A stretch of 64,000 nt of DNA from an uncultured Planctomycetia bacterium (GCA_964606485.1 CAZSGP010000004.1:92365-156364), one strand, 5' to 3'. Numbered from the stretch's first letter, positions 2,126 through 24,662 are shown. Numbers and translations: made by a program. Notes: generated by a model not told the origin, from the sequence alone.

Positions 2126-5100
2126 TTACGCCGCTACACCCACCGCTTCTTGCATGGTTTGAAACGCAGAAAGTCTGCTTCCTACGACTTCGAGCACTGA
2201 TCGAAGCGTATAAGCCGGAGCCACTGAAAAATTTTGTCCGGTCACAAACTCAATCAGGTCTTTCGCGGACCGCGGCGAATTTTTATCCAAAGCGCAAACC
2301 GAAAGGACTTTTAAATACTGACTGTCTTCAACCGCTTTTAAGAGGTCTTCGTAACGATTACCCAGATGAATTTTTCCATCTCTCCGTACGCTTTGGCTAT
2401 TGGCGCGGAAATAATCCGTAAAGTCGTGCGCCAATCCGCCCGCCATCGCAAGGCCCGTTAAAATATTGGGAATGCTGTTTTCGCCCACTTCCACAAAAAC
2501 AGCCAGCTCATTGGGAGCTAATTTCACGTCTTTCTTCAGTTGTTCGACATTGCGAATTTCGGAGGCACTTTTAAAAAGAACTTTGGTAACCACTTCATAC
2601 CGATGACTTTTTCCGATAATTCGATAATTGTCTTGATCTTCTCTCTTGCTCGATTTTTTATTTTTATCAAAATAACTCTCAACTGCGTTGATGCTTTTTT
2701 GACGATTTGGTGGAACCGTTTCGGAAAGAACTCCCGTAAAAACAAATCTTCTGGAGCGATTCGCCTCGATATAAGTTTTAATCACCTTAACAATTTCAAA
2801 AAATTCCTCATCAGAGGCGACGAGACGGCTCAGCACGTCGAATTGGATTTCTGCTCTTCCTTCTTGTTTTCTTTTGCGCGGAGCCACTTGAATCTGTTTG
2901 GCCGTTTCACCCGATTGATCAATAATAAACGCATTCGCCCTCGCTTCCTGCTCAGCCTGAGCAGTGACAGACAAATCTTTTTTAAATAAAGTGAGCGCTG
3001 ATTGCACATCCGGAATTTCCAGCTCTTTTACTTCTTCACCGGAAAACAAAACCGTTAGCTTGTTGTCTTTAAATAGGGGCACAAACACATTTGTGTTTTT
3101 AAATTCATCTTGAATCGCCAAAGCGTATTTTGTAGTTTGGTTCAGACGGCCCGAAAAAATCATTCCTAAAAATAAATCTTTCACCGCTTTTGCATCAACC
3201 GGATCAATGGGCAGGCGTGCCCCGCGTATGTACCGACTAGTTCCATCTTTAATGGAACCTAAAACCTGAATCCAGTCGAACGTCTCGCCTCGCTTTGATT
3301 CTAATGTTTGGTACGTAGCCTTTTCTCTTCTGGGAAAATATACAAGCTTAAGACTTGGCGTAGGCTCTCCATCAAGCTTGCTTGTTTCAAATCCGTAATA
3401 GAGCGCCTTGAAAATTGTGGGTGTCGTTCGACCGCGCTCGCGGCGTGAGATGAGTAGCATCGTATCGAGTGAGATGAGTTGATCTCGAATTTGATACAAC
3501 TGATCAAACGTTAGACTACCCTTAGGCCGAGCCTCCGAAGAAACGGAGGACTCCACTTTAGGATTTTGAGGAACCGGTGTGGCGGCCTGCAAATCAAGCG
3601 GGACTGGAGTTTTTTCGGTCGGTTCGGGAAGCGAAAGACGTGCACCGGTACCAATTTCGGCGTATTCGGGAAATACCGTGAGAACGGTTCCGATGACATC
3701 GGACTTAAAGCTCTGGGGCAAGCGAGGACTTTGCTCATTATCCGCATACTGCCAAACTCTATCAAAAAATTCGTCTATCTGTTTATGGAGATCCTGGTGA
3801 GTGATCATGACATGCTCGTAACTCTTCTCCTTCAATCCGGGTTCTTCGTAAAGAAGCGCGGTCAAGTAATATCCAGACTCATACCGCTTCATGATTTCCT
3901 GGCGAATCGTTTGAAGATCCGCCTCGAGTTTGGCGTACTGCGGCAGATCTCTCCACAATTTTTTGACATATCGGTAAAAATCCCGTGTCACGTGACTCAG
4001 AGTCCAAGCGGATATTCCCAGCGCTGCAGCCATTGTGGATAGGTGTGTCAGTATTTCTGTGGTGCTCGCTAGGCGCGCTCCTAAACTTCCGCCTTTTAAA
4101 CCACCCGCATTCGGGTTTGTTGGGGGATAAATTCTTTCGATCCAGATCACCCGATCACGGCGCTTTGAATAAAGACCCATATCCCCTTCGTCCGGAGTTT
4201 TAGAATAATAGGAAATTTCATCCCTCTTTATCTCAAGGTAAACCACCTTAACGGTTTGCACCTTATTTCGGTTGCCTTGCATAAAGGTAATGTGCACAGG
4301 CTGAGGCCCCTTAAGCTTGAGATTTAAAAATTCATCAAAAGTGTAGTGATTGTCGGAGGGTCTATGAAAAATAGGTGCTGAGTCGGATGCACGAACAGCC
4401 CCTTTTTTAACTTCCGCAAGAGGTGTTTTTTCTGTCCGGTCAAAAGTGTTGCGTGCGGGAGTTTTTTCCGTGTAATCAAAATTAGCTAATCGGGCGCCTT
4501 GAGTGCGAGCGGTTAAAATTTCGGTAATTTCGTCATAAGCCGCGCGATTTTTTCTTCGCGTCACATTAAAAACAATCGGCGTAAAGTCTGCCGCGTAAGA
4601 AGGGTAAAATACGTCTAAAGATTCAAGCCCCACGTCGTGCCGGATCTTGATAAAACGCCCTGAGGCTACTCTAAATGCGTAAAAGAATAAATTCTCTCCG
4701 GACTGCTCTTTTAAAATGGCAGCGTCCGGGTTGTGGCGCAAGTCTTGGGCGAGACGGTTGGGAAAATAAGACTGTCCGGGTTCTTCCGGTTCCCCGATAA
4801 GATCATCAAATGCATAACGCTGAAGAATAAAATCAACAAACTCTTTCCAGCGAAGCCTTATCTGTGAAAGCGTCTCTGACACGTACCCCTTCCCTAAACG
4901 AGCCCCCGCCCCACTACGCTCGACCCCTAGCCGTTTTGTGAGCGGCCCAATCACGTTTGGCTCCATAGCAATGGATACCGTTCGCGACAGATTTTGCATG
5001 GGCGAAAGCACACTGCGCTCCTCAAACTTTTGACCAAGTAAAATTTTCTCGTAACGCGCTTGATTCGTCTCCTGGTAGACCTGCGGACGAATCACAAAAT

Positions 5101-6487
5101 AGGAAATGCCTTTTTGCCGAAGCAAGCTCTTAAGATTGGGTGTGTGATAACCGCCAGCAATCAAAATAGCCGAAAACCCAGAACGGGTCCTGCCGGCGGT
5201 TGTCCGTTCGGACTCGCTCGCGTTTAACCGCGGCTCGCCGAGACGGATGCCTACCGCCGTCACCCGTTTTGGGTTTTCGTAAAGCTTAGACAACATATTT
5301 TCAACAAATGCTTCATCGCGAGCGCACGTTAATTCATAAAATCGCTCCGCTTGCTCCACGCTTTCATCGAACCCTTTTTCCAAAAATAGCGCTCTCTCGT
5401 AAAATGCGTGCTGTTCTGTGATTTTTTTATTTAAGAAAGCCGTGAGTTCCGTAAGTTTCCAATTTTTGGAAAGGGCGCGGTACTCGCTGTACTCTTCGGG
5501 ACTCAGAGTCAATTGAAACAGCTTCTTATAAAGCTTCAGTTGCCGCTCGCAGATTCGCAGATCTTTTTCGTCAGCGGATTGCGCTAAAACCGAGAAAACA
5601 AGCTCCTCGAGTGCTTTTTCTTCCTTGAGAACTTGCTCGGGCCCCAGTCGTTTAGAGGCTTTGAGATAATTAAAATAAGCTTTCTCGTGTTGCGCTTTTT
5701 TTACATCAATTTTGGATTCTAATTGCCCAAGCGCCCGTAGCCGTTTTAAGTGCGTGAATTTTTCGGTAGGAATTTCTAAAAATTCAGCCTGGACGAGCAA
5801 TAATTTTACAAAATCGGTGAATGCCAGTAACCCGCTATGGTAGGCATCCGCCTTTGCCTGAAACGCCAAAAGGCGCGGACGGTAAAGACGCGGTTTTAAA
5901 ACGTCAATTGCGGTTTGAATTTGAGAAAGATAGGCCCCGAACTTTTCGCGCTCGGCGGCCACGGCGCGGTAAGATTCGATCGCTTCCTTATATAAGGCGA
6001 AGTTTTCCACGCCCCAGATTGTGAAATCGAGATTTGAGGTGAGGTCCAGATATTCTTCGCCGTGGAGCAAGCCTTGCTTCAAATACGATTGGGCAACTTG
6101 TTGTCTCAGTGCAGTACTTCCGTGCGTACGAAGCGTGGAAAGCGAAACGTTTCCGGATCCGGCTTCGACGAAAATATTCGCGGCGTTTCCATTCCCACGT
6201 ATGCGCGAATCGTTCTTGAGAATAATTTCCAAGGTCTTCGCTAGATTCATCTGTCCGGAAGTGTTGGTGTGCGCGTCTTCGAGTAAATACACTGTCATTC
6301 CCGCGGAAGCGGGAATCCAAGCATCCTCAACACTGGCTACACTCTCCGGAATTTTAAATGAAAGTTTCGCCTTCTGTTCTAAACCAAGGTCAGATGGCCG
6401 CAGCTCTCCGGCCGCAAAAGCAACTGGCTCCGCTAAAAGAGCCAAGATAAGCGCCAGTGAAATGGTTCTTAAAAAACGAAAATTCAT
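2126..6487 (-). CDS. Large secreted hypothetical protein (1453 aa) with N-terminal signal peptide
   Basis: The long ORF begins MNFRFLRTISLALILALLAEPVAFAAGE, a cleavable signal peptide. I recognised no catalytic motifs. TEKTP tripeptide-containing repeats occur. A family-A repeat is embedded in-frame at aa ~408-434. Confidence 0.6.
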   Translation of the reverse strand: MNFRFLRTISLALILALLAEPVAFAAGELRPSDLGLEQKAKLSFKIPESVASVEDAWIPASAGMTVYLLEDAHTNTSGQMNLAKTLEIILKNDSRIRGNGNAANIFVEAGSGNVSLSTLRTHGSTALRQQVAQSYLKQGLLHGEEYLDLTSNLDFTIWGVENFALYKEAIESYRAVAAEREKFGAYLSQIQTAIDVLKPRLYRPRLLAFQAKADAYHSGLLAFTDFVKLLLVQAEFLEIPTEKFTHLKRLRALGQLESKIDVKKAQHEKAYFNYLKASKRLGPEQVLKEEKALEELVFSVLAQSADEKDLRICERQLKLYKKLFQLTLSPEEYSEYRALSKNWKLTELTAFLNKKITEQHAFYERALFLEKGFDESVEQAERFYELTCARDEAFVENMLSKLYENPKRVTAVGIRLGEPRLNASESERTTAGRTRSGFSAILIAGGYHTPNLKSLLRQKGISYFVIRPQVYQETNQARYEKILLGQKFEERSVLSPMQNLSRTVSIAMEPNVIGPLTKRLGVERSGAGARLGKGYVSETLSQIRLRWKEFVDFILQRYAFDDLIGEPEEPGQSYFPNRLAQDLRHNPDAAILKEQSGENLFFYAFRVASGRFIKIRHDVGLESLDVFYPSYAADFTPIVFNVTRRKNRAAYDEITEILTARTQGARLANFDYTEKTPARNTFDRTEKTPLAEVKKGAVRASDSAPIFHRPSDNHYTFDEFLNLKLKGPQPVHITFMQGNRNKVQTVKVVYLEIKRDEISYYSKTPDEGDMGLYSKRRDRVIWIERIYPPTNPNAGGLKGGSLGARLASTTEILTHLSTMAAALGISAWTLSHVTRDFYRYVKKLWRDLPQYAKLEADLQTIRQEIMKRYESGYYLTALLYEEPGLKEKSYEHVMITHQDLHKQIDEFFDRVWQYADNEQSPRLPQSFKSDVIGTVLTVFPEYAEIGTGARLSLPEPTEKTPVPLDLQAATPVPQNPKVESSVSSEARPKGSLTFDQLYQIRDQLISLDTMLLISRRERGRTTPTIFKALYYGFETSKLDGEPTPSLKLVYFPRREKATYQTLESKRGETFDWIQVLGSIKDGTSRYIRGARLPIDPVDAKAVKDLFLGMIFSGRLNQTTKYALAIQDEFKNTNVFVPLFKDNKLTVLFSGEEVKELEIPDVQSALTLFKKDLSVTAQAEQEARANAFIIDQSGETAKQIQVAPRKRKQEGRAEIQFDVLSRLVASDEEFFEIVKVIKTYIEANRSRRFVFTGVLSETVPPNRQKSINAVESYFDKNKKSSKREDQDNYRIIGKSHRYEVVTKVLFKSASEIRNVEQLKKDVKLAPNELAVFVEVGENSIPNILTGLAMAGGLAHDFTDYFRANSQSVRRDGKIHLGNRYEDLLKAVEDSQYLKVLSVCALDKNSPRSAKDLIEFVTGQNFSVAPAYTLRSVLEVVGSRLSAFQTMQEAVGVAA
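5181..5268. repeat. Family-A palindromic element, copy 2, inserted in-frame inside the 1453-aa CDS
   Basis: GGGTCCTGCCGGCGGTTGTCCGTTCGGACTCGC...GAGACGGATGCCTACCGCCGTCACCC is translated on the minus strand as ...[24 protein letters not shown]... without a stop codon. Confidence 0.6.
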
Positions 6488-12139: not shown

Positions 12140-13210
12140 ATGAAAAAGACGATTCTCTTAAATCCAGGCCCCGTCAATGTCACCCCCAGTGTGCGCCGCG
12201 CCCTTCTCAAGCCCGATATTTGCCACCGGGAACATGAGTTTTCCACACTTTTACAGTCTATCCGGACGCGGCTTCTCAAAATTTTCTCAGTGGAGCGCTC
12301 GCATACGGTTGCTTTTTTTTCGGGGTCCGGCACCACAGCGCTCGAAGCGATGCTCTGCGCCTCTGCCGCTGAAGGTAAAAAAGTACTGGTTCTCTCCAAT
12401 GGAGTTTATGGGGAACGCATCCAAAAAACGCTTCAAATTCACGAAATCTCGTCGATTGTACTAGATTCACCCATCGGGGAATTTCCAAATCTTCATTTGA
12501 TTGAAGAAACGCTTAAAAAAAATCCTGCCATTGAGTCGGTAGCGCTCGTGCATCACGAAACATCAAGCGGCATGCTCAACCCTCTAAAAGAAGTTTCGGC
12601 TCTTGCTAAAAAATACGGCAAGCTCGTTTTTGTAGACGCCATTAGCTCACTTGGCGCAGAAACCATCCATTTTAAAAATATCGATTACTTGGCGGGAACC
12701 TCGGGAAAATGCCTGCACGGCTTTCCAGGCGTTTCATTCGTCTTTATCGAAAAAAAGGCGCTCCCGAGACTGAAGAGCCTAAAAGTTCGCTCGCTGTCCT
12801 TCGATCTCTGGAATGCGTTAGAGCATCAATTGCAAAATGACACGCCGTTTACGCCGGTCGTTCAAATTTTTTACGCGTTCGATCAAGCACTCAAAGAACT
12901 CGAAAAGGAAACGTTGAGCCGGCGCATCCGCCGCTACGAAGAAAAAGCGACGCTTCTCGAAAAAGGTTTTGAAGAAATGGGGATTCAATTTTTAATTTCC
13001 AAAAAAAATCGCTCCCACGTGCTCACTGCTCTTTGGACACCGGCGTCCGTGTCCTACGCCACCCTGCACGATACGCTCAAGAAAAAAGGGTTTGTGATTT
13101 ACGCTGGCCAATCCTCGCTCAAAGGTAAAATTTTCCGTGTCGCGAATCTCGGTGATGTTTCTATCCAGGACTTAAGACGCTTTCTTGCTGCCTTCAAAAA
13201 AAGTTTATGA
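12140..13210 (+). CDS. Class V aminotransferase, 2-aminoethylphosphonate:pyruvate transaminase (PhnW)-like
   Basis: The ATG at 12140 gives MKKTILLNPGPVNV. The segments SNGVYGER, HHETSSGMLNP, VDAISSLGA, GKCLHGFPGVSFV and FRVANLGDV track the PhnW/AGXT-family conserved blocks. Confidence 0.65.
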   Translation: MKKTILLNPGPVNVTPSVRRALLKPDICHREHEFSTLLQSIRTRLLKIFSVERSHTVAFFSGSGTTALEAMLCASAAEGKKVLVLSNGVYGERIQKTLQIHEISSIVLDSPIGEFPNLHLIEETLKKNPAIESVALVHHETSSGMLNPLKEVSALAKKYGKLVFVDAISSLGAETIHFKNIDYLAGTSGKCLHGFPGVSFVFIEKKALPRLKSLKVRSLSFDLWNALEHQLQNDTPFTPVVQIFYAFDQALKELEKETLSRRIRRYEEKATLLEKGFEEMGIQFLISKKNRSHVLTALWTPASVSYATLHDTLKKKGFVIYAGQSSLKGKIFRVANLGDVSIQDLRRFLAAFKKSL

Positions 13211-13890
13211 GCGCACCGTCCGTCATTCCGCCGAGTGAGAGTTTTAAATTAAACCGTTTTTTGGCTGAGCCTTTTACGCGGCTTCTTCTAAAAACACCAC
13301 TAACGCCCAATCAAGTCACAATCCTGAGTCTAGCGTTTGGCGTCCTAAGCGGCTGGTTCATTTCATTTGGTAGCTTCATTGGTTTTGTCAGCGGAGCACT
13401 TGCATTTCAAATGGCAGCGGTGCTCGACAATTGCGACGGCAATATCGCCCGCGCAAAGAATATGCGGAGTGAGTTTGGCGGCTGGCTTGACGTGTTTTGT
13501 GACGTGCTCGTCGACATCGCCTTCTTTGTGGGTTTAACAGCCGGCGTCAAAGCGGCCGGGTTTCACGGTCCCATTTGGATAGCGGGATCGCTCTGCGTGG
13601 CCGGAAGTCTGATGAATTTTTGGGTGGTCGTCACCGAAAAATTAAAAGGGTTTGGTCCGGCCGTGTTCAATCAGTCTAACCCCAAGGAAGCTAAGCGCAG
13701 AAACTGGCTCTACAAAACTGCTGATGCCCTCCGCGAAGGCGATTCCTCCTGGTTTATCCTACTCTTTGCTCTTTTTTCAAAAATGGACTGGTTGTTGTGG
13801 AGCTCAGCGGTGTACATGCAGATTATTTGGCTGAGTTCTCTCATCATGAATTTCAAATACATTTTTCTTTCACCCAATGAAAATCGTTAA
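13207..13890 (+). CDS. CDP-alcohol phosphatidyltransferase family membrane protein
   Basis: The signature D-G-x2-A-R-x8-G-x3-D-x3-D is present as DNCDGNIARAKNMRSEFGGWLDVFCDVLVD. Confidence 0.75.
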   Translation: MSAPSVIPPSESFKLNRFLAEPFTRLLLKTPLTPNQVTILSLAFGVLSGWFISFGSFIGFVSGALAFQMAAVLDNCDGNIARAKNMRSEFGGWLDVFCDVLVDIAFFVGLTAGVKAAGFHGPIWIAGSLCVAGSLMNFWVVVTEKLKGFGPAVFNQSNPKEAKRRNWLYKTADALREGDSSWFILLFALFSKMDWLLWSSAVYMQIIWLSSLIMNFKYIFLSPNENR

Positions 13891-14866
13891 ATTTCTTCTC
13901 CTCGGACTCGGATTTTGGCTTCTTTATTTTACGATTCAAAAGGTCGGCTTTGGAAATATTGAAGGCTATCTGCGCCAAATGGGCTGGAGCGCACTCCCCA
14001 TTCTCATTATTTATCCGCTGATATTCTTTTTCGACACACTCGGCTGGCTTTACGCATTTCCCAAAAGCCTCCCCAAACACATTCCGTTTCTGGATCTTTA
14101 TTTTATTCGCATCATCGGTGAGACGATGAACTGCATCATCCCCTGGGCCGCGTCACTGGGAGGCGAGCCACTCAAAGTTCAGCTTTTAAAATCGCGTCAC
14201 GGCATATCCCTCGCCGAAGGCTACGCCTCGATTCTGATTGTTCACACCACGTTTTGGATTTCACTCAACTGTTTTGTGATTGGCGCCATCGTCTTTACGC
14301 TCAAATCGCTTCCGCTCACTCCCATTCTGTGGCACAGCGTCCTCATTTTTCTAGTGGTGCTGGGCGTAGTCGCAGCCCTACTCGTCGCGGGCCTTCACTG
14401 GGGAATTTTTGAAAGATTTCATTCGATCGGTGAAGCGTTTAAGTGGTGGGGGGAACATTCACACGAGAAAAAACAAAAATTTATCTCTCTCGATCGTGAC
14501 ATTAAAACATTTTACACCGAAAATAAATCGCGTTTTTTTCTTTCCAGTTTCTTTAACCTGCTGGGCTGGCTCATGGGAATGTTTGAAGTGTATTTTATTG
14601 GCCGCGCCCTCGGCCTGCCGATCGGAATTACCGAAGCGTGGCTTTTAGAAGCGCTGATTCAGGTTTTGCGCATCGTGACTTTTTTTATCCCCTCTTCGAT
14701 TGGAACCCAAGAAGGCGGAATCGTTCTTATCTTTTCTCAATTTGGATTCGCCGGGCCTGCGAGCCTTGCGTTTGCAATTGTGCGGAGAATCCGCGAAATG
14801 ATTTGGATTGGGTTTGGGCTCGTACTCTGGTCGCTTTTAAGCGATCGCTCAAAAACTACTTCGTAA
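13877..14866 (+). CDS. Flippase-like / lysylphosphatidylglycerol-synthase transmembrane-region family protein
   Basis: An ~8-TM protein of 329 aa, translationally coupled to the CDP-alcohol transferase; architecture typical of the UPF0104/TIGR00374 family. Confidence 0.55.
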   Translation: MKIVKFLLLGLGFWLLYFTIQKVGFGNIEGYLRQMGWSALPILIIYPLIFFFDTLGWLYAFPKSLPKHIPFLDLYFIRIIGETMNCIIPWAASLGGEPLKVQLLKSRHGISLAEGYASILIVHTTFWISLNCFVIGAIVFTLKSLPLTPILWHSVLIFLVVLGVVAALLVAGLHWGIFERFHSIGEAFKWWGEHSHEKKQKFISLDRDIKTFYTENKSRFFLSSFFNLLGWLMGMFEVYFIGRALGLPIGITEAWLLEALIQVLRIVTFFIPSSIGTQEGGIVLIFSQFGFAGPASLAFAIVRRIREMIWIGFGLVLWSLLSDRSKTTS

Positions 14867-16175
14867 AATCCCGCTCGTCGACTAAACGCGCGAGTTTCCG
14901 CTGGGTTCGAAGCGCGCCTCGTGCATGCGGAATAAAATCAATTTTACAAAATTTCATTTGATAAATATTCCACGCATCCGGCAATTCCTTTTTAAGACTC
15001 TTGAAAAAGGCTTCCGAAATTTGTCCGGGATCCCCCACAGCATCCGAGTGCTCCGCGTGGAATTCGATTAAATCCTTCCGGTCTTGTTGCTTGAGCACAA
15101 TTTGCCAGTCCGGTCCAAGCCCTGCGACACCGGAAAACACGGGTTCAAACATCCACGGCGCGATATTCCCAATCGCCGTCGGCACCCATTCATTCATTCG
15201 ACCCTTTAATTTTTCGATGCGGCGACCCGGAAGCCCACTCTTAGAAGGCGTATTGAGAAAGCGTGTCACGTCTCCTGAGCGGTAGCGCACAAGCGGCATC
15301 ACGCGGCGGTTTAAATTCGTGTACACAAGTTCGCCGTAACCTTGCGGATCGGGATTTAAAATTTCAAAAAAATTATGAAATTGATTGAGTTGGTAGCCAT
15401 CCTGCGCCAAATTTTCCATGCCGAGCGCGCCAAAGCCTTCGGTTTGCCCGTAACTTAAAAGAAACTGCGCTTTCCAAATTTTTTCGATGTATCGGCGCGT
15501 GGACTCTGCCATATTTTCGCCGCCGCCAATTAAAAGTTTTACCGGCCAAGCTCCATGCTTTTCGGCCACTTCGCTTAAACCTAGAATCCAGGAAGGGTCG
15601 CCAACAATCACCGTAATTTTATAATCTTTTAAGCGCTCATAAAAATCAGCCGGCGGAATACGCCCGGCTTCGACGTGAAAACAGCCCATCACTTTGCAAC
15701 TTGCTGAAAGCACGGGCCCTGAAACCCAAAACGAATAATCAAACGCACTGGCCACCCGGTCAGTGGGACGAACACCCACTCCCCAGAGACCCACCGCACC
15801 CGCCCAACCCGCCTCCTCAACTTCGTTTCGTGAAAAATAAACGCGCTTGGGCCGCTTGGACGTGGTCCCCGTCGTTTCGTAAGCAGTGTCCGCTTTGAGA
15901 CAAATAAATTCTTCCGGATTTTGACGAAGATCTTCAGCGGTCGTAAAAAAATCTTTTAGATCCTGCGGTGCTTTAACGGTAGAAGCGTCGATATTCAACT
16001 CTTTGAACCGCCTCTTATAAAACGGGGAGTGCTCCGCTACAAATTGAACCGTCTTTCTAAAATTATCTTCTTCGAGACGATGAAGTATTCCGTGGGGAAC
16101 ATTTTTATAAAGCCAAAATCCCCGCTCGGCAGGATTGCCGGCAGGGATTTTGTTAATAAGAGAAACGAGTGACAC
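14856..16175 (-). CDS. Adenylate-forming enzyme, phenylacetate-CoA ligase / coenzyme F390 synthetase-like (acyl-CoA or acyl-ACP ligase)
   Basis: An ANL P-loop variant TTGTTSKRPKRVYFS and a YGQTEGFG motif are present. It is the last gene of the FAS/PKS-like operon. Confidence 0.7.
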   Translation of the reverse strand: MSLVSLINKIPAGNPAERGFWLYKNVPHGILHRLEEDNFRKTVQFVAEHSPFYKRRFKELNIDASTVKAPQDLKDFFTTAEDLRQNPEEFICLKADTAYETTGTTSKRPKRVYFSRNEVEEAGWAGAVGLWGVGVRPTDRVASAFDYSFWVSGPVLSASCKVMGCFHVEAGRIPPADFYERLKDYKITVIVGDPSWILGLSEVAEKHGAWPVKLLIGGGENMAESTRRYIEKIWKAQFLLSYGQTEGFGALGMENLAQDGYQLNQFHNFFEILNPDPQGYGELVYTNLNRRVMPLVRYRSGDVTRFLNTPSKSGLPGRRIEKLKGRMNEWVPTAIGNIAPWMFEPVFSGVAGLGPDWQIVLKQQDRKDLIEFHAEHSDAVGDPGQISEAFFKSLKKELPDAWNIYQMKFCKIDFIPHARGALRTQRKLARLVDERDFTK

Positions 16176-17549
16176 TTATTTGGCGCACTTTTTAATCAAG
16201 AGATCAAACATCTCGCAAGCCAAATCCATCTCGGCTTCGGAGATATCAAACGCCGGCGCGATGGTGAACACGTTTTTGTAATAACCACCCACGTCGAGCA
16301 CCAAACCCATCTTGCCCTTGGAGGTTTGAATGCCTTGCATGCCCGCATGGAAAATGCGGTCTGTCATCTCGCGGTCCGGCGTGTAACCGTCCACCGGCGA
16401 GACAATTTCCATGCGAAGGGCCATGCCCATGCCATCGACATCGCCGATAATTTTCGGATGCTTCTTCTGCAAGTCTTTCAACTTACCTAAGAATATTTTC
16501 CCTTTTTTCTCAATGCCGCCTTGGAAATCGGTTTCCTCGGTCATTTTCATGAGCTCCAAACCCACGGCCGTGCCGAGTGTGTTGGACGAAAATGTCGAAT
16601 GCGTCGAACCCGCACCCCAAACTTTCGGGTTGATTAGCTCTTCCTTGGCCCAAATACCCGAAAGCGGGTTCAAACCATTGGTCAGCGCTTTGCCGAACAC
16701 GATGATGTCGGGCTTCACACCGAAATTGGCCATTGACCAAAGAGGCCCTGCGCGATGAAAGCCCATTTGGATTTCGTCATCCACCAAAAGCACTTTGTGT
16801 TTTTCGAGGATTTTCTTGATCGCTGGAAAATAATTTTTCGGCGGAATCACATACCCGCCGGTGCCTTGAATCGATTCGGCATAAAATGCGCCAAATTCCG
16901 ACTCACCCGCTTTAAAATCCCAGACACCGTTGTATTCGGTTTCAAATAATTTTTCAAACTGGTCCACGCAGTACATGCCACAATCCTCCGGCTTTTTGCC
17001 GTAGGGGCAGCGGTAGCAGTAAGGATACGGCACAAAATGCGCACGGTCCGAAAAGTGCCCAAAGCGCCTGCGGTACCGGTAGCTCGACGTAATCGCCGAA
17101 GCGCCCAGCGTTCTGCCGTGATAGCCGCCCATGAACGCGAACACTAAATTTTTCTTGGTGTGTTGGCGCACGATCTTCAGTGAGTCTTCCACTGCCTGCG
17201 CACCACCCACGTTAAAATGCACGCGGCCTTTTTCACCGAATAGTTTTTCTACCGAAAGCGCGATTTTTTCCGATAGTAGCACTTTTTCTTCGTGCAAATA
17301 CTGGCAAGCCAGCTGTGGCAATTTATCGATTTGCTTTTTTAGCGCCTCGCCTAAGCGTTTGTTGTTGTAGCCGAAGCTTGCGGCCGAATACCACATCTGA
17401 AGGTCGAGAAATTTATTGCCCTCACGATCGTAAAGATAGCTACCTTCACAGCGGTCAAAAAATTTCGGAGGTTCGAGGTAGTGCACGGTATCGCCGTACG
17501 AACAATATTTGGCTTCTTTCTCAAGAAGTTCTTTTTCAGAAAAGCTCAT
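16176..17549 (-). CDS. Class III (PLP fold type I) aminotransferase
   Basis: 457 aa, with the PLP-lysine context IVFGKALTNG and the conserved DDEIQMGF block. Confidence 0.75.
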   Translation of the reverse strand: MSFSEKELLEKEAKYCSYGDTVHYLEPPKFFDRCEGSYLYDREGNKFLDLQMWYSAASFGYNNKRLGEALKKQIDKLPQLACQYLHEEKVLLSEKIALSVEKLFGEKGRVHFNVGGAQAVEDSLKIVRQHTKKNLVFAFMGGYHGRTLGASAITSSYRYRRRFGHFSDRAHFVPYPYCYRCPYGKKPEDCGMYCVDQFEKLFETEYNGVWDFKAGESEFGAFYAESIQGTGGYVIPPKNYFPAIKKILEKHKVLLVDDEIQMGFHRAGPLWSMANFGVKPDIIVFGKALTNGLNPLSGIWAKEELINPKVWGAGSTHSTFSSNTLGTAVGLELMKMTEETDFQGGIEKKGKIFLGKLKDLQKKHPKIIGDVDGMGMALRMEIVSPVDGYTPDREMTDRIFHAGMQGIQTSKGKMGLVLDVGGYYKNVFTIAPAFDISEAEMDLACEMFDLLIKKCAK

Positions 17550-18184
17550 GAATTCTCCTTATTGGCGCTTAACCACTTTGTAATTTCTTTAAACGTTGAA
17601 TATTCTAAATGTTCGATTTTATTTTCCTGACAATACTTCAGTAGTTTCTTTTTCGCAAAAACAATATCCGCCGTGTGCGCGGCAAAGCGGTCCGAGAGTC
17701 CGTCGCCGATAAATACAGTCGTGTGCCCTGATTTTCGATGCTTCTCGATCACATCGACCTTGCAATTTGCACACCCATGTTTGCAGGGCGTCTTTTTATA
17801 AAAGGATATTTTGGGGCCTTGCGGAGTAAACAAAATGCTATTGGAGTAGATCGGCATAGTTTGGCCCATCACGCGCTGAATCACAAAATCAAGGCCGTCA
17901 CTGACAATGCTCGCCGGAATATGATGCTCTTCTATGACATTTAAAAAATCTTCAAATCCCGGATCAATCCGAACTTCCGTTAACATCTTCGCGAGCGACG
18001 CCTTATCCGCTTTCACAAGTTCAAATTGCCGCGTGAGGCATTCCCGCGAACCAATTTTCCCGCTCGCCCATTCTTCTTCGATGGTTTTCCACGAGGGGTC
18101 CGCAAATCTTTCTAAAATCATATCGATCACATCGTTTTGTGTGACCGTGCCGTCAAAGTCGATAAAAAATTGAATTTTTTCCAT
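17546..18184 (-). CDS. HAD-superfamily phosphatase, MtnX-like
   Basis: HAD motif I FIDFDGTVTQND; a Cys cluster CKHGCANCK; a C-terminal IGDGLSDRFAAHTADIVFAKKKLL block paralleling Bacillus MtnX. Confidence 0.65.
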   Translation of the reverse strand: MEKIQFFIDFDGTVTQNDVIDMILERFADPSWKTIEEEWASGKIGSRECLTRQFELVKADKASLAKMLTEVRIDPGFEDFLNVIEEHHIPASIVSDGLDFVIQRVMGQTMPIYSNSILFTPQGPKISFYKKTPCKHGCANCKVDVIEKHRKSGHTTVFIGDGLSDRFAAHTADIVFAKKKLLKYCQENKIEHLEYSTFKEITKWLSANKENS

Positions 18185-19453
18185 TTAATCCTTAAAGCGC
18201 TTCACAACCAGCGCCACGTTTTGACCGCCGAATCCAAAAGAATTACTCAAAACAGAATCGACTTTCGCTTTCCGCGCGTGATTGGGAACGTAGTCTAGAT
18301 CACAGTCCGGATCTGGGTTCTCATAATTAATCGTCGGTGGAATGATCCCTTCGCGGATCGTGAGCACGCTTGCGATGAGCTCCACCGCCCCCGCCGCGGC
18401 AATCATGTGTCCGAGCATTGATTTGATCGAGCTTACCGGAATCGACGAAGCACCCATTCCAAATACCTGCTTGATCGCCAAAGTTTCCACTTGGTCGTTG
18501 AGCTGAGTCGACGTCCCGTGTGCGTTGATATAATCCACGCCTTTTCCGGACAATTGCGCGTTTTCTAGAGCAAGCTTCATGGCGCTGATGGCGCCGCGCC
18601 CTTGCGAATGTGGATCGGTCAGCCGATACGCATCCGCCGTTGTTCCGTAACCGGCAAGTTCCGCATAAATCGTCGCCCCGCGTTTTTTAGCGTGCTCGAG
18701 CTCTTCTAAAATCAGTGCCCCCGCGCCTTCAGCAAGTACAAATCCATCCCGCGCTTTATCGAATGGTCTTGACGCTTTTTGAGGCGCATCATTTTGCGTG
18801 GAAAGAGCCGTTAAAAGATTAAAACCCGCGACTCCGAGCGGATGAATCATCGAATGCGCGCCACCCGTTAAAATCACGTCCGCTTCACCCCCGCGGATAA
18901 TTTCAGCGCTTTCCCCGATCGCTTGGCTCGACGCTGCGCACGCCGTTAGACAATTCGAAATAATTCCTTCCGCGCCGAAGTGATCCGCCAAATGCCGAAT
19001 CACCGCTTGAGGCTCTTGTTCGGCGAGAGACTGCGCATCCGCCATTTGAAGTGTGTTGCGAATATAAGACGCTGCGTCTACATGTTCGTGTCCGTTTAAA
19101 ATAGATTTTGAAATAATTGACGCGTAGCTAGGAAAATTAAACCCACCGTCTCCCGCCCCAAAATACACACCGAAGCGCTCAGGCTTAAAATGGTTTTTAA
19201 GTTTAGCGTCGTCGAATGCTTGCTGACTTGCCGCCAAAGCAAAATGACTATTGCGGCCGAGCTTCTTTTGTTTCGAAAAATCAAAATGCTTCACCTCACC
19301 GGCAATTTTGGTCGGAAACGATTTGGCGTTAAAAATGGAGATGGGCGCAATGCCGCTTTTTCCGTCAAGCAGTGCTTTCCAGGTTTCGGCCACGCTATTG
19401 CCAAGCGGTGTAACCGCTCCGATTCCAGTAATCACTACCCTTTTGAGAGACAT
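18185..19453 (-). CDS. Beta-ketoacyl-ACP synthase II-type ketosynthase (catalytically intact)
   Basis: The catalytic Cys is present in LTACAAS, and both His residues are present in NAHGTST and [11 protein letters not shown]; 422 aa. Confidence 0.9.
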
Positions 19454-19456
19454 CGA

Positions 19457-20704
19457 TTAACCCTTAAACGTTTCAATGATCACGGAAGAACTGGGTCCTC
19501 CGAGACCAAAACTTGTAACCAGCGCGCGCTGAAGCGGCACAGATACCGCATTTTGTTTCACCACTTTAAAATCAAATGGAATCGCCGCTTGTTCGAAATT
19601 TTGAATCGGTCCGATTTGTTGCGCGTTGAGTGCCTTCACGGCAATCAGAAGATCGAGCGCGCCGGATACAAAACCGGTAAATCCTGTCACAGGCTTCGAC
19701 GCGCTCACCCAAGTCTCTTTCGAATGGCTTCCAAAATTTTCAGTGAGCGCCTTCATTTCCTGCCGGTCATCGGCAGCAATGCCGATCCCCGACGCCTGAA
19801 TGTACGAAATATCTTTTGCGGTCAACCCCGACTTTTGAAACGCCGCTCGAATCGCATGCGACTGTCCGTCAGATGACGACGAACCGTATCCGGCCACTTT
19901 GGCGTAAATCGTCGCACCGCGTTTTCTGGCGTGTTCGAGTTCTTCAAAAACTAGAAAACAGGCGCCTTCACCCGGAACCAAGCCTTGTGCTTTGTGATCA
20001 AACGGCCGGTACAATTTTTTTGGATCTTTTTGGCCATTTTTTTCGGAGAGACTCTTCAAAGACGCGTACTGCGAATACCCAACCGGATTAATTTTTGATT
20101 CGGCACCACCGGCAAGCATCATGTTCGCCGTTCCGCGCTCGATAATCCGGCAAGCTTCTTCGACCGCTTGAAGGCCGCTCGACGCTCCCGTCGTGATGGT
20201 ATTGCTCGGACCTCTCAAATCAAAAAGAATTGAAATGTGACAAGCGGGCATATTGGGCAAATATTTTAAAAGCCAGAGTGGAAAAAGTGCGTGGAGCCCT
20301 TCTTCGCCAAATCGCTCTAAACTTAAATCACCCTTTTCGTCGTAGGAACTTTTAACCGATGACGCGAGTTCGTCTAGCTCGTGACTCAGGACACCGGCAC
20401 CGACCGTGATTCCCGCCTTGTCGTGATCGAGCTCTGAAAGATTAATCTTAGAGTCTTCCATCGCGAGTTTCGCAGCCCCCACGGCCATTTGAATATCGCG
20501 GGCCATGACTTTGATAGACTTGCGATTGGCAATGTAGCGCTCAGGATTAAAATCCTTGAGATACGCTCCCGTTGGATTCCAGCCGTCAAATGACAAATCT
20601 TCAATCGCAGAGCGCCCGGAAATCCACGCGTCCCAAAGCGGCGTAACCCCTTCACCAGCGGCGCTTAAAACGCCTAAGCCTGTGATCACCACTTCGCGCT
20701 TCAT
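19457..20704 (-). CDS. Ketosynthase homologue lacking the Cys-His-His triad (chain-length-factor / KS-beta-like)
   Basis: Full-length KS fold of 415 aa. The aligned positions read TITTGASSG (no Cys), IQASGIGIAADD (no His) and KPVTGFTGFVSGA (no His). Confidence 0.75.
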   Translation of the reverse strand: MKREVVITGLGVLSAAGEGVTPLWDAWISGRSAIEDLSFDGWNPTGAYLKDFNPERYIANRKSIKVMARDIQMAVGAAKLAMEDSKINLSELDHDKAGITVGAGVLSHELDELASSVKSSYDEKGDLSLERFGEEGLHALFPLWLLKYLPNMPACHISILFDLRGPSNTITTGASSGLQAVEEACRIIERGTANMMLAGGAESKINPVGYSQYASLKSLSEKNGQKDPKKLYRPFDHKAQGLVPGEGACFLVFEELEHARKRGATIYAKVAGYGSSSSDGQSHAIRAAFQKSGLTAKDISYIQASGIGIAADDRQEMKALTENFGSHSKETWVSASKPVTGFTGFVSGALDLLIAVKALNAQQIGPIQNFEQAAIPFDFKVVKQNAVSVPLQRALVTSFGLGGPSSSVIIETFKG

Positions 20705-21177
20705 CGGGCTTCACTCGCTTGGGCGACTTCCATGACTTGGTAATGCTCCATAAACCCTTCATTAAAAACAATTTTTTTGTCCTGCGACGCATCTAGCGAA
20801 TCAATGCTCATTAAAAGAATTTCGGCACTTGCCACTTTTTCGTCTTCGCACCAGACTTCGCCCCTGACCACCGCGCCGCTTTCGCTTTCTTCACGCAGTT
20901 CCACCTCGATTTCCAGTTTACAAGGAGGTGTCACCGCTTTATAAAATTTTGATTCCGAAATTTTCACCAAAATCACTTCTTTTTTAAATTCGAGCCCTAA
21001 CCCAAACAAAACGCCTCCCGTTTGCGCGATCATTTCTACAAAAAGCGGCTCGGGAACGCGTGGGTTGCCTGGAAAATGTTCAGCAAAAAAATCTTCTTGG
21101 CCCGAGTATGCTTTTAAAGCACGGGCGTAACTTCCCTTTTTTAGAACTTCAAACTTGTCGACTAAATGCCAGCGCAC
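20701..21177 (-). CDS. FabZ/FabA-like 3-hydroxyacyl-ACP dehydratase (hotdog fold)
   Basis: HFPGNPRVPEPLFVEMIAQ matches the dehydratase active-site motif HxxGxPxxPG. Confidence 0.75.
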   Translation of the reverse strand: MRWHLVDKFEVLKKGSYARALKAYSGQEDFFAEHFPGNPRVPEPLFVEMIAQTGGVLFGLGLEFKKEVILVKISESKFYKAVTPPCKLEIEVELREESESGAVVRGEVWCEDEKVASAEILLMSIDSLDASQDKKIVFNEGFMEHYQVMEVAQASEAR

Positions 21178-21479
21178 AAAGCCACCACATGGTCTTTGGA
21201 ATTGACGAAGCGGATTTTAAAATTTCTTTTACGCGAAGAAGATAGAATCTGAATATTTTTGAAGCCCTCGGTTCCCATCCAGGGTTCGTGTCCGGCTTTG
21301 AATGCCGCTTCTTTAGCGGCCAGAAGTTTGGCTAAATTTTTGTAAGGACTGCGGTGTCTTGAAATGAATCGGATTTCTTTGGAGTTAAAAAAGGATTCCA
21401 GGCGATTTTGGTGATTTTTGTAAAACTCGCGGGCTTTGCGGTATTCCACCAAATCCACGCCCAGAGAAATTTTTTCCAC
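21162..21479 (-). CDS. acpS: Holo-ACP synthase (4'-phosphopantetheinyl transferase, AcpS type)
   Basis: ISLGVDLVEY and LAAKEAAFKA match the AcpS motifs. The start is placed at the GTG at 21479, 5 nt after the ACP stop. The longer ORF reaching 21593 would overlap the ACP gene by >100 nt. Confidence 0.55.
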   Translation of the reverse strand: MEKISLGVDLVEYRKAREFYKNHQNRLESFFNSKEIRFISRHRSPYKNLAKLLAAKEAAFKAGHEPWMGTEGFKNIQILSSSRKRNFKIRFVNSKDHVVALCAGI

Positions 21480-21484
21480 TTTTT

Positions 21485-21883
21485 TTAGGACTTTGTGACG
21501 GCTAATTTCTCCGTAAGGTAATCCACAATCATACCGACCGTGAACACGTCGCCGAGATTGGCGACAACAGGATTTTTGGAAAATTCCGTCCATTTTCCAC
21601 TGGGAATTCTTTTTTTGAGTTCTTCTAGGCCTGCCGACGTCACACGCCCTTCTTTGACGAAGTTCGGATCCGTCAATAATTTCTCAGGAAAGAGCTCGCC
21701 CTTCGGAATTTTAATTTTAAATGCTTTTTCCAAACGAAAAACAATGTCCAGAAAATCAATGGACTCGGCGCCCAGATCTTTAATGAGCGAAGCTTCAAGT
21801 GTGATCTTGGCTTCCTCGGCCCGCAAGGCTTGGCCGATAATGTTTTTAACTTGTTTGATAATTTCTTGCTTATCGTTTGTCAC
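21485..21883 (-). CDS. Acyl carrier protein with ~55-aa C-terminal extension
   Basis: The phosphopantetheine attachment context DLGAESIDFLD lies in the first ~70 aa. The total length of 132 aa is unusually long for an ACP. Confidence 0.7.
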   Translation of the reverse strand: MTNDKQEIIKQVKNIIGQALRAEEAKITLEASLIKDLGAESIDFLDIVFRLEKAFKIKIPKGELFPEKLLTDPNFVKEGRVTSAGLEELKKRIPSGKWTEFSKNPVVANLGDVFTVGMIVDYLTEKLAVTKS

Positions 21884-21900
21884 GTGCTGAAAACTCCTTT

Positions 21901-22644
21901 TTATTTACGCCCCAGAAGGCTAATGCCCCCATCCACCGTAAAAATTTGTCCGGTGATGTAGCGCGCCTTTTCCGAAGCCAAAAAGCAAACCATGTCCGCT
22001 ATTTCCTGGGGCAATGCAAAACGCCCCAGCGGAATTCTTTCTTTAATCTTGTCCCCAAACGCGGAGCGCGCTGCTTCCGACATTTGCGTTTCCACCATGC
22101 CGGGCGACACCGCATTCACCGTCACGTTTTTCGAAGCCAGTTCCGACGCGAGTGATTTTGTAAACGCGTTGATCGCTCCTTTTGACGCCGCATAATTGGT
22201 CTGGCCAACTCCGCCAAGCTCTCCCACAATCGAGGAGAGATTGATAATAGCGCCTTGACGCTGAGAAACCATGGGCCGCGCTGCCACCTTACAAAACCGG
22301 TACACGCCGCCGAGATTGGTCTCCAGAACGTCCTGCCAATCTTCATCCGAGAGAGTTAAAAAAAGCCCGTCTTTGATGATGCCGGCATTATTCACCAAAA
22401 TATCGATCCGCTCTTCTTTCGATAAAATTTGATCCACACAATCGTCGACACTTTGAGCGTTTTTGACGTCACAAACGATGGCGCGGTCGAGCGGCAATTT
22501 CAATTTCTTTAAAAGAACTTCGGCGTCGGTCTTTGACTGACGCACCGTAAAATAAACTTTAGCGCCCTGCTCGACGAGGCCTTCTACAACCGCGGCGCCA
22601 ATTCCCTTCGAGCCGCCGGTCACAAGTGCCACGGCTGTACTCAC
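21901..22644 (-). CDS. fabG: 3-oxoacyl-ACP reductase (SDR)
   Basis: VALVTGGSKGIGAAV Rossmann motif, NNAG, and the YAASKGAI catalytic YxxxK. Confidence 0.9.
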   Translation of the reverse strand: MSTAVALVTGGSKGIGAAVVEGLVEQGAKVYFTVRQSKTDAEVLLKKLKLPLDRAIVCDVKNAQSVDDCVDQILSKEERIDILVNNAGIIKDGLFLTLSDEDWQDVLETNLGGVYRFCKVAARPMVSQRQGAIINLSSIVGELGGVGQTNYAASKGAINAFTKSLASELASKNVTVNAVSPGMVETQMSEAARSAFGDKIKERIPLGRFALPQEIADMVCFLASEKARYITGQIFTVDGGISLLGRK

Positions 22645-23039
22645 AGCGCTTCGAGCTCCAATGTTGCGACAAAAACCTTCGCTTTTGTCTCGGGCGCTAT
22701 CAAATCAATCCGCCCTTCAAACCGGGCTTTGGATTCCTTTTCGTCTATAAGCCGAGAAAAAATTTTAAGCGTACTGCCCGGTTTTACAAAATAACCAAAT
22801 TTCACGTCCATAGCCGACACTAAGCGAAAATGACTGTCGCTTGTCTGTTTTTTTTCGGCTAAAAATTTTGCTGAAACTTGCTTCACAGCCTCTAAAAGCA
22901 GAACGCCCGGCATCACCGGGAACGATTCAAAATGATCCTGTAAAAACTCTTCGGACCCTTTGAGTGTAAATAAAGCCGTCATCGAGTCGGCACTCGCTTG
23001 CTCGACCCGGTCCACAAACGTAAATACTTTCAAAAACAA
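22641..23039 (-). CDS. Second FabZ/FabA-like hotdog dehydratase
   Basis: DHFESFPVMPGVLLLEA dehydratase motif; 132 aa. Confidence 0.7.
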   Translation of the reverse strand: MFLKVFTFVDRVEQASADSMTALFTLKGSEEFLQDHFESFPVMPGVLLLEAVKQVSAKFLAEKKQTSDSHFRLVSAMDVKFGYFVKPGSTLKIFSRLIDEKESKARFEGRIDLIAPETKAKVFVATLELEAL

Positions 23040-23102
23040 GCCTTTTGGTTAGATTACAAACCATCAATATAGCATGGGTTAGGGGCCTTGCCAAGAGCCC
23101 GT

Positions 23103-23867
23103 TTAGGAGTCAGATTTGGACAGTTCAGCCCGTCTTTGGGCCCTTAAATCTTGAACAGGATTGCCGCCCCAGTAGCTTCGGGGGGGCACTCGCGTGCCTT
23201 TGGGCACAAAACTGCAGGGCGCAATGGTCGAACCATCCCCAATTTCCACGTCCGGCATGATCACGGAGTTGATTCCGATCGAAACGTTATTCCCAAGCTT
23301 CGTGCGAGCCAGACGAATAAAACCCCTCTCCGACGCATGGCAAATGAGGGCCGTTCCTCCACCCACAAGAACGTGATCTCCAATTTCCAGTAAGGATAGG
23401 TCCGCCAGTCCTCCGGTGTTGATATTCACGCCATTGCCGACTTTGGCGCCCATCAGACGGTAAAACAAAGTTTGGAACGGAGAGATGCGTAGAACATCTA
23501 AAAAGGCGGCATTCGCAATGAGAATCATCGAGTTGTAGCCCATCCAGCGCAAAGACTCCATAGCGTGGATCTTGTACAAACCCGGTTCGATTCTAAACCT
23601 AAAAACATTTTTGGCGAGTACACAAACAAAAATTAGCGTCGTTCCAAATAGAAAATAGCCAATCCCCAGGGACATCGAAAACGCCAAAAGCTTGACCCAA
23701 ACGCCGTAGACACCGGTCGCTTTCCACACCCAATAGAAAAAAGCGATCATGGGGAAAAAGCTAAATCCCAAGATAAGGGCTGCTAAGAGATGCAAGCCGT
23801 AAAGCCATTGCTGGAATCGCTTTTCATCGGCTTTCGCCTGCTTCATTTTTTCATCGGGGGTTGCCAT
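23103..23867 (-). CDS. Membrane-anchored left-handed beta-helix (hexapeptide-repeat) acyltransferase
   Basis: N-terminal TM helices are followed by hexapeptide repeats (VGNGVNINTGGLADLSLLEIGDHVLVGGG..., IGINSVIMPDVEIGDGSTIAP). The start is uncertain: GTG at 23885 or ATG at 23867 or 23846. Confidence 0.55.
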   Translation of the reverse strand: MATPDEKMKQAKADEKRFQQWLYGLHLLAALILGFSFFPMIAFFYWVWKATGVYGVWVKLLAFSMSLGIGYFLFGTTLIFVCVLAKNVFRFRIEPGLYKIHAMESLRWMGYNSMILIANAAFLDVLRISPFQTLFYRLMGAKVGNGVNINTGGLADLSLLEIGDHVLVGGGTALICHASERGFIRLARTKLGNNVSIGINSVIMPDVEIGDGSTIAPCSFVPKGTRVPPRSYWGGNPVQDLRAQRRAELSKSDS

Positions 23868-23912
23868 GAGTCTGGATTTTAACACATAGAGATGTTAAAT
23901 TAACGCCTGAAC

Positions 23913-24662
23913 ATGAGCTCTCACAAAAAAACAATCTTTATCAGCGGTGGCACTCGCGGAATTGGGCGCGCCATCACCCTTTCCCAGGCATCGGAAAAAA
24001 CCTGCCTTCTTTTGAATTATCTCCGCGACGAAGAGTCCGCGCTTCAAGTCAAACACGACGCCGAAAAAAAAGGCGCGGAAGTTCATTTGTACGCAGGAAA
24101 TGTCGGAGACACTGAGAATGTTAAATCCATCTTTGAACTGGTTGCGAAAGACCATCCCCGGATTGACGGCCTCATTCACAGCGCAGCACTCGGCGTCTTT
24201 AAACCGGTGCACCAATTGCGGGCCAAAGATTGGGACATTTCGATGGACGTAAACGCTCGCGCGCTTTTAACGCTGACGCAAAGCGCCCTGCCGCTCATGA
24301 AATCGCACGGCGGAAAAATTATTGCGATTTCCAGTCTCGGCGCCGGTCACTACACACCAAACTACGGCGCAATCGGTATTTCAAAAGCGGCTATGGAAAA
24401 TTTAGTGAGGTATCTGGCCGTCGAACTTTCGGTATTTAAAATTCAAGTCAATGCGGTCTCTGGCGGCCTTGTCGACACAGAGTCTCTCAAGATGTTTCCG
24501 GATTCCGAGAAAATGAAAAAAGAATACCTCCAAAAAACTCCCGGTGGACGACTTGGTCAACCCGAGGACATTGCGAGCGTCGTCTCCTTTCTTCTCAGCG
24601 AACAAAGCAACTGGATCATGGGCCAAACGTTGATCGCGGACGGTGGCTATTCTCTCTCCTAA
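23913..24662 (+). CDS. SDR-family oxidoreductase (ketoreductase or enoyl-reductase-like)
   Basis: The FISGGTRGIGRAI glycine-rich motif and the YGAIGISK YxxxK context; 249 aa. Confidence 0.8.
   Translation: MSSHKKTIFISGGTRGIGRAITLSQASEKTCLLLNYLRDEESALQVKHDAEKKGAEVHLYAGNVGDTENVKSIFELVAKDHPRIDGLIHSAALGVFKPVHQLRAKDWDISMDVNARALLTLTQSALPLMKSHGGKIIAISSLGAGHYTPNYGAIGISKAAMENLVRYLAVELSVFKIQVNAVSGGLVDTESLKMFPDSEKMKKEYLQKTPGGRLGQPEDIASVVSFLLSEQSNWIMGQTLIADGGYSLS

Follow-up and report, generated by a model that had tools for sequence, protein, structure and literature searches.

The analysed window, 64,000 nucleotides from an uncultured bacterium (GCA_964606485.1 CAZSGP010000004.1:92365-156364), carries at positions 12140-14866 three overlapping genes that encode a class V aminotransferase, a CDP (cytidine diphosphate)-alcohol phosphotransferase family membrane protein, and a polytopic membrane protein of the LPG_synthase_TM/HpnL type. 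This trio is probably the late, membrane-directed half of a 2-aminoethylphosphonate (AEP) phosphonolipid pathway of the "Group 1 phosphonolipid/CDP-OH" type, with the early half encoded elsewhere in the genome. Phosphonolipids withstand phospholipases and phosphatases, and their phosphorus is locked in a carbon-phosphorus bond. "Group 1" clusters are the commonest phosphonate clusters in sequenced bacteria, and to our knowledge neither a product nor a late-step enzyme of these clusters has been characterised. From the source names attached to homologues, the organism appears to belong to the Omnitrophota, a phylum of mostly uncultured, often very small cells, and the locus is best described as a new, split Omnitrophota member of a predicted cluster type already known from its genes. 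The original prediction, which proposed that the trio builds and exports an amino- or phosphonate-containing polar head group, is partly supported. Its phosphonate reading is upheld, as the aminotransferase falls in the AEP-transaminase family and the trio is homologous to that of "Group 1 phosphonolipid" clusters containing phosphoenolpyruvate (PEP) mutase (Ppm).

All three open reading frames (ORFs) were confirmed on the plus strand at the coordinates first assigned to them. The aminotransferase gene (12140-13210, 356 amino acids) meets the transferase gene (13207-13890, 227 amino acids) at an ATGA junction, the transferase gene shares 14 bases with the gene for the membrane protein (13877-14866, 329 amino acids), and the 3′ end of this third gene shares 11 bases with the 3′ end of a convergent AMP (adenosine monophosphate)-ligase gene (14856-16175). 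The aminotransferase ORF could open at 12065, yet the start at 12140 is preferred because homologues begin at the MKK..LLNPGP found there. The four peptide blocks that had been likened to AEP:pyruvate transaminase lie at aminotransferase residues 86, 138, 191, and 332, and the transferase contains the complete CDP-alcohol motif D-x2-D-G-x2-A-R-x8-G-x3-D-x3-D at residues 74-99 (DNCDGNIARAKNMRSEFGGWLDVFCD). Pfam matches all exceed their gathering thresholds, with 71 bits for Aminotran_5, 45.1 bits for CDP-OH_P_transf (PF01066; threshold 22), and 108 bits for LPG_synthase_TM (PF03706).

As judged from its sequence, the aminotransferase appears to be an AEP transaminase rather than an enzyme of the AGXT type. 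It matches the NCBIfam PhnW-AepZ model TIGR03301 with 353.3 bits (E 1.7e-105), against 122 bits (E 2.7e-35; cut-off 650) for the BhcA model, and its closest solved relatives are the AEP transaminases 9kk8, 1m32, and 7e7g and the Treponema denticola PntC-AEP transaminase fusion 6pd1 (E ~1e-57), whereas solved AGXT/serine-pyruvate transaminase (SPT) chains give weaker matches (E 1e-23 to 1e-46). An AGXT or serine-glyoxylate assignment had been held equally possible; the far stronger profile and structure matches to AEP transaminases do not support that view. The enzyme shares family and fold type with the PhnW/AepZ transaminases and with 6pd1, and K190, D166, and R333, which are invariant among relatives in the alignment, line up with their counterparts in 9kk8 and 6pd1. 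From the 1m32 structure, we take these residues to be the lysine that binds pyridoxal phosphate, the aspartate, and the C-terminal arginine. Protein searches with the aminotransferase returned two groups, stand-alone proteins at 57-65% identity and fusions of ~600 amino acids at 52-59% identity, in which the aminotransferase is joined to an NTP_transf_3 cytidylyltransferase. The window enzyme is stand-alone, unlike the T. denticola protein (6pd1; PMC6697681) and the 52-59% identical Omnitrophota homologues, all of which carry the fused cytidylyltransferase. PntC enzymes have been shown to make CMP-AEP, in which AEP is linked to cytidine monophosphate (PMC6697681).

That the aminotransferase is instead a degradative PhnW, serving AEP breakdown or scavenging beside two membrane proteins that are unrelated neighbours, seems highly improbable. 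It does match the catabolic PhnW equivalog TIGR02326 (272.6 bits, E 5e-81), but well under the cut-off of 400.8, and the window shows no sign of a phosphonatase (PhnX), PhnA, or PhnY. The three genes overlap, many genomes carry them together as one unit, and the setting of the aminotransferase, alongside two membrane-protein genes, looks biosynthetic and lipid-linked, unlike that of catabolic PhnW. An identity as catabolic PhnW was rejected on these grounds.

The seven-gene core of the Group 1 phosphonolipid/Burkholderiales_CDP-OH clusters comprises a Ppm-PntC fusion, phosphonopyruvate decarboxylase (Ppd), AEP transaminase, a 2-oxoglutarate/Fe(II) oxygenase, a second PntC, and two lipid-biosynthesis genes (PMC8942020). 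The window holds the AEP transaminase, the CDP-alcohol transferase, and the HpnL-like gene as one overlapping unit, whereas four of the seven core functions (Ppm-PntC, Ppd, the second PntC, and the 2-oxoglutarate oxygenase) are absent from its 64 kb. It differs further in its apparent Omnitrophota host, in that the closest syntenic genome splits the pathway over two loci, and in that the trio abuts an operon resembling type II polyketide synthase (PKS) systems. A gene set spread over separate loci has a precedent in the split phosphonate cluster of a lichen-associated Nostoc, a member of a different phylum that is likened here by gene set only. The figure of the Nostoc/Burkholderia phosphonate cluster lists AEP transaminase, CDP-alcohol phosphatidyltransferase, and hpnL, and its legend uses a broken genome line to denote separate loci (PMC5987646).

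Close relatives of the window aminotransferase and transferase lie inside seven-gene cores of other Omnitrophota (L172, L094, and L101), and seven-gene cores of Nitrospira, Binatia, Scalindua, and others also include the three gene families of the trio. An alignment of the aminotransferase was scanned against species-representative genomes, and the 80 loci obtained were scored for marker genes. Most of these 80 relatives adjoin Ppd and PntC, and many also adjoin a CDP-OH transferase and an LPG_synthase_TM gene, a family found in most surveyed loci with Ppm, Ppd, AEP transaminase, and CDP-OH transferase. Three of the full phosphonate clusters (L004, L005, and L006) combine a CDP-OH transferase with a split Ppd, an aminotransferase-PntC fusion, a Ppm-PntC fusion, and a PhyH-type oxygenase, with an LPG_synthase_TM gene in L005 and L006 only. 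Compared with these fusion clusters, the window trio shows 54-55% identity in the aminotransferase, 34% in the transferase, and 25% in the membrane protein, and the NCBIfam profile patterns of the trio and of its counterparts in Ppm clusters are nearly identical.

The aminotransferase and transferase trees, both built by neighbour joining, place the window with L001, L007, L010, and L011, none of which has Ppm, Ppd, or PntC within reach, and in both trees L008 and L009 are intermingled with this group. L008 encodes Ppd, an aminotransferase, a CDP-OH transferase, and PntC, and L009 encodes the same four together with Ppm-PntC and PhyH; their aminotransferases are 61% and their transferases 46-47% identical to those of the window. 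Through the transferase alone, the search also reached L172, with Ppm-PntC, Ppd, an aminotransferase (63% identity), a CDP-OH transferase (49%), PntC, an LPG_synthase_TM gene, and PhyH. Only L001, L007, L171, and L172 were reached via the transferase itself, most other loci in the tree having been fetched by aminotransferase or Ppd queries.

Two further observations concern these relatives. In L096 (8301-16795), Ppm-PntC and Ppd precede genes for an iron alcohol dehydrogenase, a GDSL-like lipase, a fatty-acid desaturase, a methyltransferase, and a PMT_2 glycosyltransferase. This is a different cluster, probably of the hydroxyethylphosphonate type, and its Ppd shares 65% identity with the L008 Ppd. 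An AsmA/YhdP-like gene lies a few kb from the phosphonate genes in both L001 (5648-7414) and L172 (11104-12711), which are otherwise unlike in arrangement, and no counterpart was recognised in the window. Members of the AsmA/YhdP family are linked to phospholipid movement to the outer membrane.

Ordinary PgsA and PssA, the two identities that the original prediction had set against its own reading, do not fit the transferase. It scores 27.3 bits against the PgsA equivalog (cut-off 109.1) and 22.5 bits against PssA (cut-off 107), and scores of 54.6 for PIP synthase (cut-off 170) and 67.5 for AIP synthase (cut-off 180) are likewise far under the mark, so that PIP synthase was rejected together with PgsA and PssA. 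Among named families, the archaeal AIP and DIPP synthases come closest to it, and its nearest solved relatives are AF2299 (E 2.6e-15) and IPCT-DIPPS (E 3.5e-09). With these two it shares the complete signature motif, but the relationship is remote, far under every named equivalog cut-off, and the window protein has no fused cytidylyltransferase domain. AF2299 and IPCT-DIPPS both use a soluble CMP-activated head group, and by the logic of the reaction the eukaryotic choline/ethanolamine phosphotransferases can be grouped with them. A literature search turned up no characterised CDP-alcohol transferase acting on CMP-AEP. Protein searches define the transferase family as a tight set of ~85 clusters at 44-62% identity, mostly from Omnitrophota, and the window enzyme is 46-49% identical to those encoded between AEP transaminase and PntC in L008, L009, and L172.

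The third protein of the trio scores 73 bits against TIGR00374 and 149.1 bits against the HpnL model TIGR03476, the latter under the cut-off of 195.65 and at the same level as the equivalent gene in Ppm clusters (146 bits). It has Pfam family PF03706, a similar size, and a similar number of hydrophobic segments in common with HpnL and with the flippase domain of MprF. It differs from MprF in having no aminoacyl-phosphatidylglycerol synthase domain, and the MprF model gives just 20 bits. By analogy with these proteins, it may act as a lipid translocase.

The original prediction named no source for the phosphonate. One can now be given for the closest syntenic genome, in which Ppm-PntC and Ppd lie on a different contig from the trio, and we infer that the window's own genome also has Ppm. 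A metagenome scan with the L008 Ppd as query found the full clusters L094 and L101 and also isolated pairs of Ppm-PntC and Ppd in Omnitrophota-like contigs (L088-L091, L093, L098, L102-L104, and L107). In these pairs, Ppd is 60-72% identical to the L008 Ppd, and transaminase, transferase, and LPG_synthase_TM genes are all absent within 10 kb. The pair at L088, with the Ppm motif EDKQFPKVNS, lies on contig CDKODX010000008.1 of assembly GCA_975752505.1, flanked on one side by LeuRS and ComEC and on the other by SpoVG, UPF0102, ComM, and cytochrome oxidase genes. A second contig of the same assembly, CDKODX010000013.1 (L002), carries a trio of the window type in the window's synteny (PyrB, PyrR, YopX, RsmI, GlmS, the trio, and the convergent operon), with protein identities of 54-81%. 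The two halves complement each other, the pair providing Ppm, Ppd, and a PntC domain and the trio providing the transaminase, the transferase, and the membrane protein. The tetranucleotide correlation between the trio locus and the L088 pair locus was 0.957, the top of the comparison set, and their G+C contents are similar. In GCA_975752505.1, the pathway is split over two loci.

Comparison of the isolated Ppm-Ppd loci with the window by tblastx found no shared genes, and the pair, if present, would therefore lie outside the 64 kb. Neither an oxygenase nor a second PntC occurs within the 10-kb flanks of the GCA_975752505.1 loci L001/L002 and L088, the rest of that assembly not having been searched, and AEP, rather than 1-hydroxy-AEP, is the expected head group because no oxygenase is found at either fetched locus. 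Another locus with trio and operon, on the contig of P0033, is without Ppm.

Several results weigh against assigning the trio to a phosphonolipid pathway. The aminotransferase falls 7 bits short of the TIGR03301 cut-off of 360.8 bits; a PntC-fused homologue flanked by Ppd and Ppm scores lower, at just 320.6 bits. As had been predicted, the window contains neither PEP mutase nor phosphonopyruvate decarboxylase: the Ppm motif EDKxxxxxNS occurs in no frame, and no tblastn match to Omnitrophota Ppm, Ppd, PntC, or PhyH was better than E = 0.13. A weaker negative is that no Ppm-PntC on the window's own 366-kb contig was among the best 120 of 1,759 matches. The same-genome evidence for a split pathway is drawn from another organism, a relative at 54-81% protein identity known from a binned metagenome assembly. 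Among Nitrospinaceae (L012-L039), ~20 aminotransferase homologues at 47-52% identity, an orphan clade resembling AEP transaminases, have no phosphonate partner nearby, with Ppd, PntC, CDP-OH transferase, and LPG_synthase_TM genes all absent within 10 kb. The phosphonate context of loci in the transferase tree is partly built in because they were fetched with aminotransferase or Ppd queries, and the window LPG_synthase_TM protein is just 25-28% identical to its counterparts in L005 and L172. Finally, no member of the Group 1 cluster type has a chemically characterised product (PMC8942020).

One way to read the missing early genes is that Ppm has been lost and the module put to a non-phosphonate use. 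The substrate of the aminotransferase would then be a phosphate-ester or other small carbonyl compound, and the transferase would combine the resulting amino alcohol with housekeeping CDP-diacylglycerol, giving an unusual aminophospholipid. The window is without Ppm, Ppd, and PntC, none appeared on the 366-kb contig among the matches listed, and no dedicated cytidylyltransferase lies beside the trio; moreover, the nearest named families of the transferase (AIP, PIP, and DIPP synthases) include CDP-diacylglycerol users, and the HAD phosphatase encoded in the adjacent operon could act in a PgpA-like manner. We nevertheless regard this explanation as unlikely. The aminotransferase is equally close (61-63% identity) to its Ppm-less homologues and to the transaminases inside full Ppm clusters (L172, L008, and L009), and the trees do not separate them. 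Ppm-PntC and Ppd are present in the syntenic relative, and a local cytidylyltransferase would be unneeded because a PntC domain is fused to Ppm.

In the favoured AEP phosphonolipid pathway, synthesis would begin outside the window, where the Ppm part of a Ppm-PntC fusion would convert PEP to phosphonopyruvate and Ppd would convert phosphonopyruvate to phosphonoacetaldehyde, both steps being assigned to this genome by extension from the relative. The aminotransferase (12140-13210) would then form AEP from phosphonoacetaldehyde, a step for which family evidence is strong, and the PntC domain fused to Ppm, again presumed from the relative, would convert AEP to CMP-AEP. Guilt by association and enzyme-family logic suggest that the transferase (13207-13890) would take CMP-AEP as donor and attach its aminoethylphosphonyl group to a lipid hydroxyl with loss of CMP, diacylglycerol being the simplest acceptor. 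By analogy with MprF, the HpnL/MprF-flippase-like protein (13877-14866) would carry the product to the outer leaflet.

An operon converges on the trio from the minus strand (14856-23885). Its final three genes encode a PaaK/FlxY-like AMP-ligase (14856-16175), a class III aminotransferase (16176-17549), and a HAD-IB MtnX-like phosphatase (17546-18184), all candidate accessory functions by family assignment. In solved-structure searches, these three matched nothing more specific than archaeal racemase/GABA-transaminase types, PaaK, and MtnX, generic relatives that point to no particular function. The remainder (18185-23885, minus strand) is a type II fatty acid synthase/PKS-like set composed of a FabF-like ketosynthase, a dead ketosynthase partner, two FabZ/ApeI-like dehydratases, AcpS, an acyl carrier protein of 132 amino acids, FabG, and a membrane hexapeptide acyltransferase. 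Of the ketosynthase pair (18185-19453 and 19457-20704, minus strand), the downstream member is FabF-like, with 490 bits against a cut-off of 493.75, and the upstream member is without the Cys-His-His triad (Cys to Ala, His to Ser, and His to Phe), which would make it a chain-length-factor-like partner comparable to those of aryl-polyene or cispentacin-type type II systems. Weak matches to AmcE/AmcF/AmcB (cispentacin) and FlxY/FlxB (flexirubin) also occur at this operon. Beyond it, on the plus strand, lie genes for an HpnB/CruG-like GT2 glycosyltransferase (24643-25818) and a FabL-like reductase.

With this neighbourhood, the same AEP chemistry could serve an acceptor other than ordinary diacylglycerol, either a specialised lipid from the convergent operon or an acceptor of glycan or hopanoid type, and the region from 12140 to ~25800 would then be one biosynthetic unit. 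We consider this possible, though doubtful. The window, L001, L007, and L171 all show the convergence of trio and operon with overlapping 3′ ends, at transferase identities as low as 44%, and the HpnB/CruG-like GT2 gene is close by. However, the loci with this adjacency share the GlmS-RsmI-YopX genes upstream, and it may reflect lineage-level gene order only: upstream housekeeping synteny also persists in L001 and L171, where that region is covered, the L007 contig beginning at the transferase gene. L011 has BacA and the trio between unrelated flanks with no operon, and the full-cluster loci L172, L008, L009, L094, and L101 have no operon within reach. Because housekeeping synteny is shared and both L011 and the full-cluster loci are without the operon, adjacency by itself is weak evidence that trio and operon are functionally connected.

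A second, independent link between the HAD, aminotransferase, and AMP-ligase genes and phosphonate genes comes from a single Omnitrophota locus, L173 (2577-7880; GCA_016206875.1, JACQQR010000164.1). There, a HAD phosphatase, a class III aminotransferase, and an AMP-ligase, orthologous to the final three genes of the window operon and in the same order (40%, 70%, and 51% identity, respectively), are followed by Ppm-PntC on one strand. No Ppd occurs within the 12-kb contig, and a stand-alone PntC and a small Rieske protein come next on the other strand. The three genes are a candidate phosphonate accessory because Ppm-PntC follows them on the same strand in L173, a link that counts in favour of a specialised acceptor, though it is limited to that one locus. 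A hopanoid-type acceptor is brought to mind by L174 (8001-16371; GCA_016196465.1), where phosphonate genes are interspersed with hopanoid-side-chain-like genes in the order Ppm-PntC, PntC-CDP-OH fusion (464 amino acids), Rieske, SQHop_cyclase_C-like, PNP_UDP_1 (HpnG-like), epimerase (HpnA-like), LPG_synthase_TM, CDP-OH transferase, and AEP transaminase, an arrangement that hints that the acceptor may vary by lineage.

In the most extended form of this idea, this Omnitrophota lineage would possess a single supercluster, made up of the head-group genes and the convergent operon, for a new kind of phosphonate lipid, whose hydrophobic part or starter unit would come from the type II PKS-like machinery rather than from diacylglycerol, with the HAD, aminotransferase, and AMP-ligase genes as an unrecognised phosphonate accessory; we hold this combination to be rather doubtful. 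Two other parts of the window may be recorded here. Minus-strand genes at 25872-27634, flanked by the GT2 gene and tatC, encode a DUF1571 protein and an alpha/beta hydrolase and may be part of the lipid region, and a minus-strand ORF of 1,453 amino acids at 2126-6487 has a signal-peptide-like N-terminus and no Pfam match at E <= 0.001.

In the AEP phosphonolipid pathway favoured here, the transaminase, CDP-alcohol transferase, and HpnL-like genes of the late steps travel together as a three-gene unit that can be separated from the rest. Genome mining guided by Ppm would miss such a trio because Ppm-PntC and Ppd lie at a different locus in these Omnitrophota. The association of HAD, aminotransferase, and AMP-ligase genes with Ppm in L173 makes these genes specific candidates for a so far unknown branch of phosphonate metabolism, and the membranes of Omnitrophota are probably decorated with AEP.

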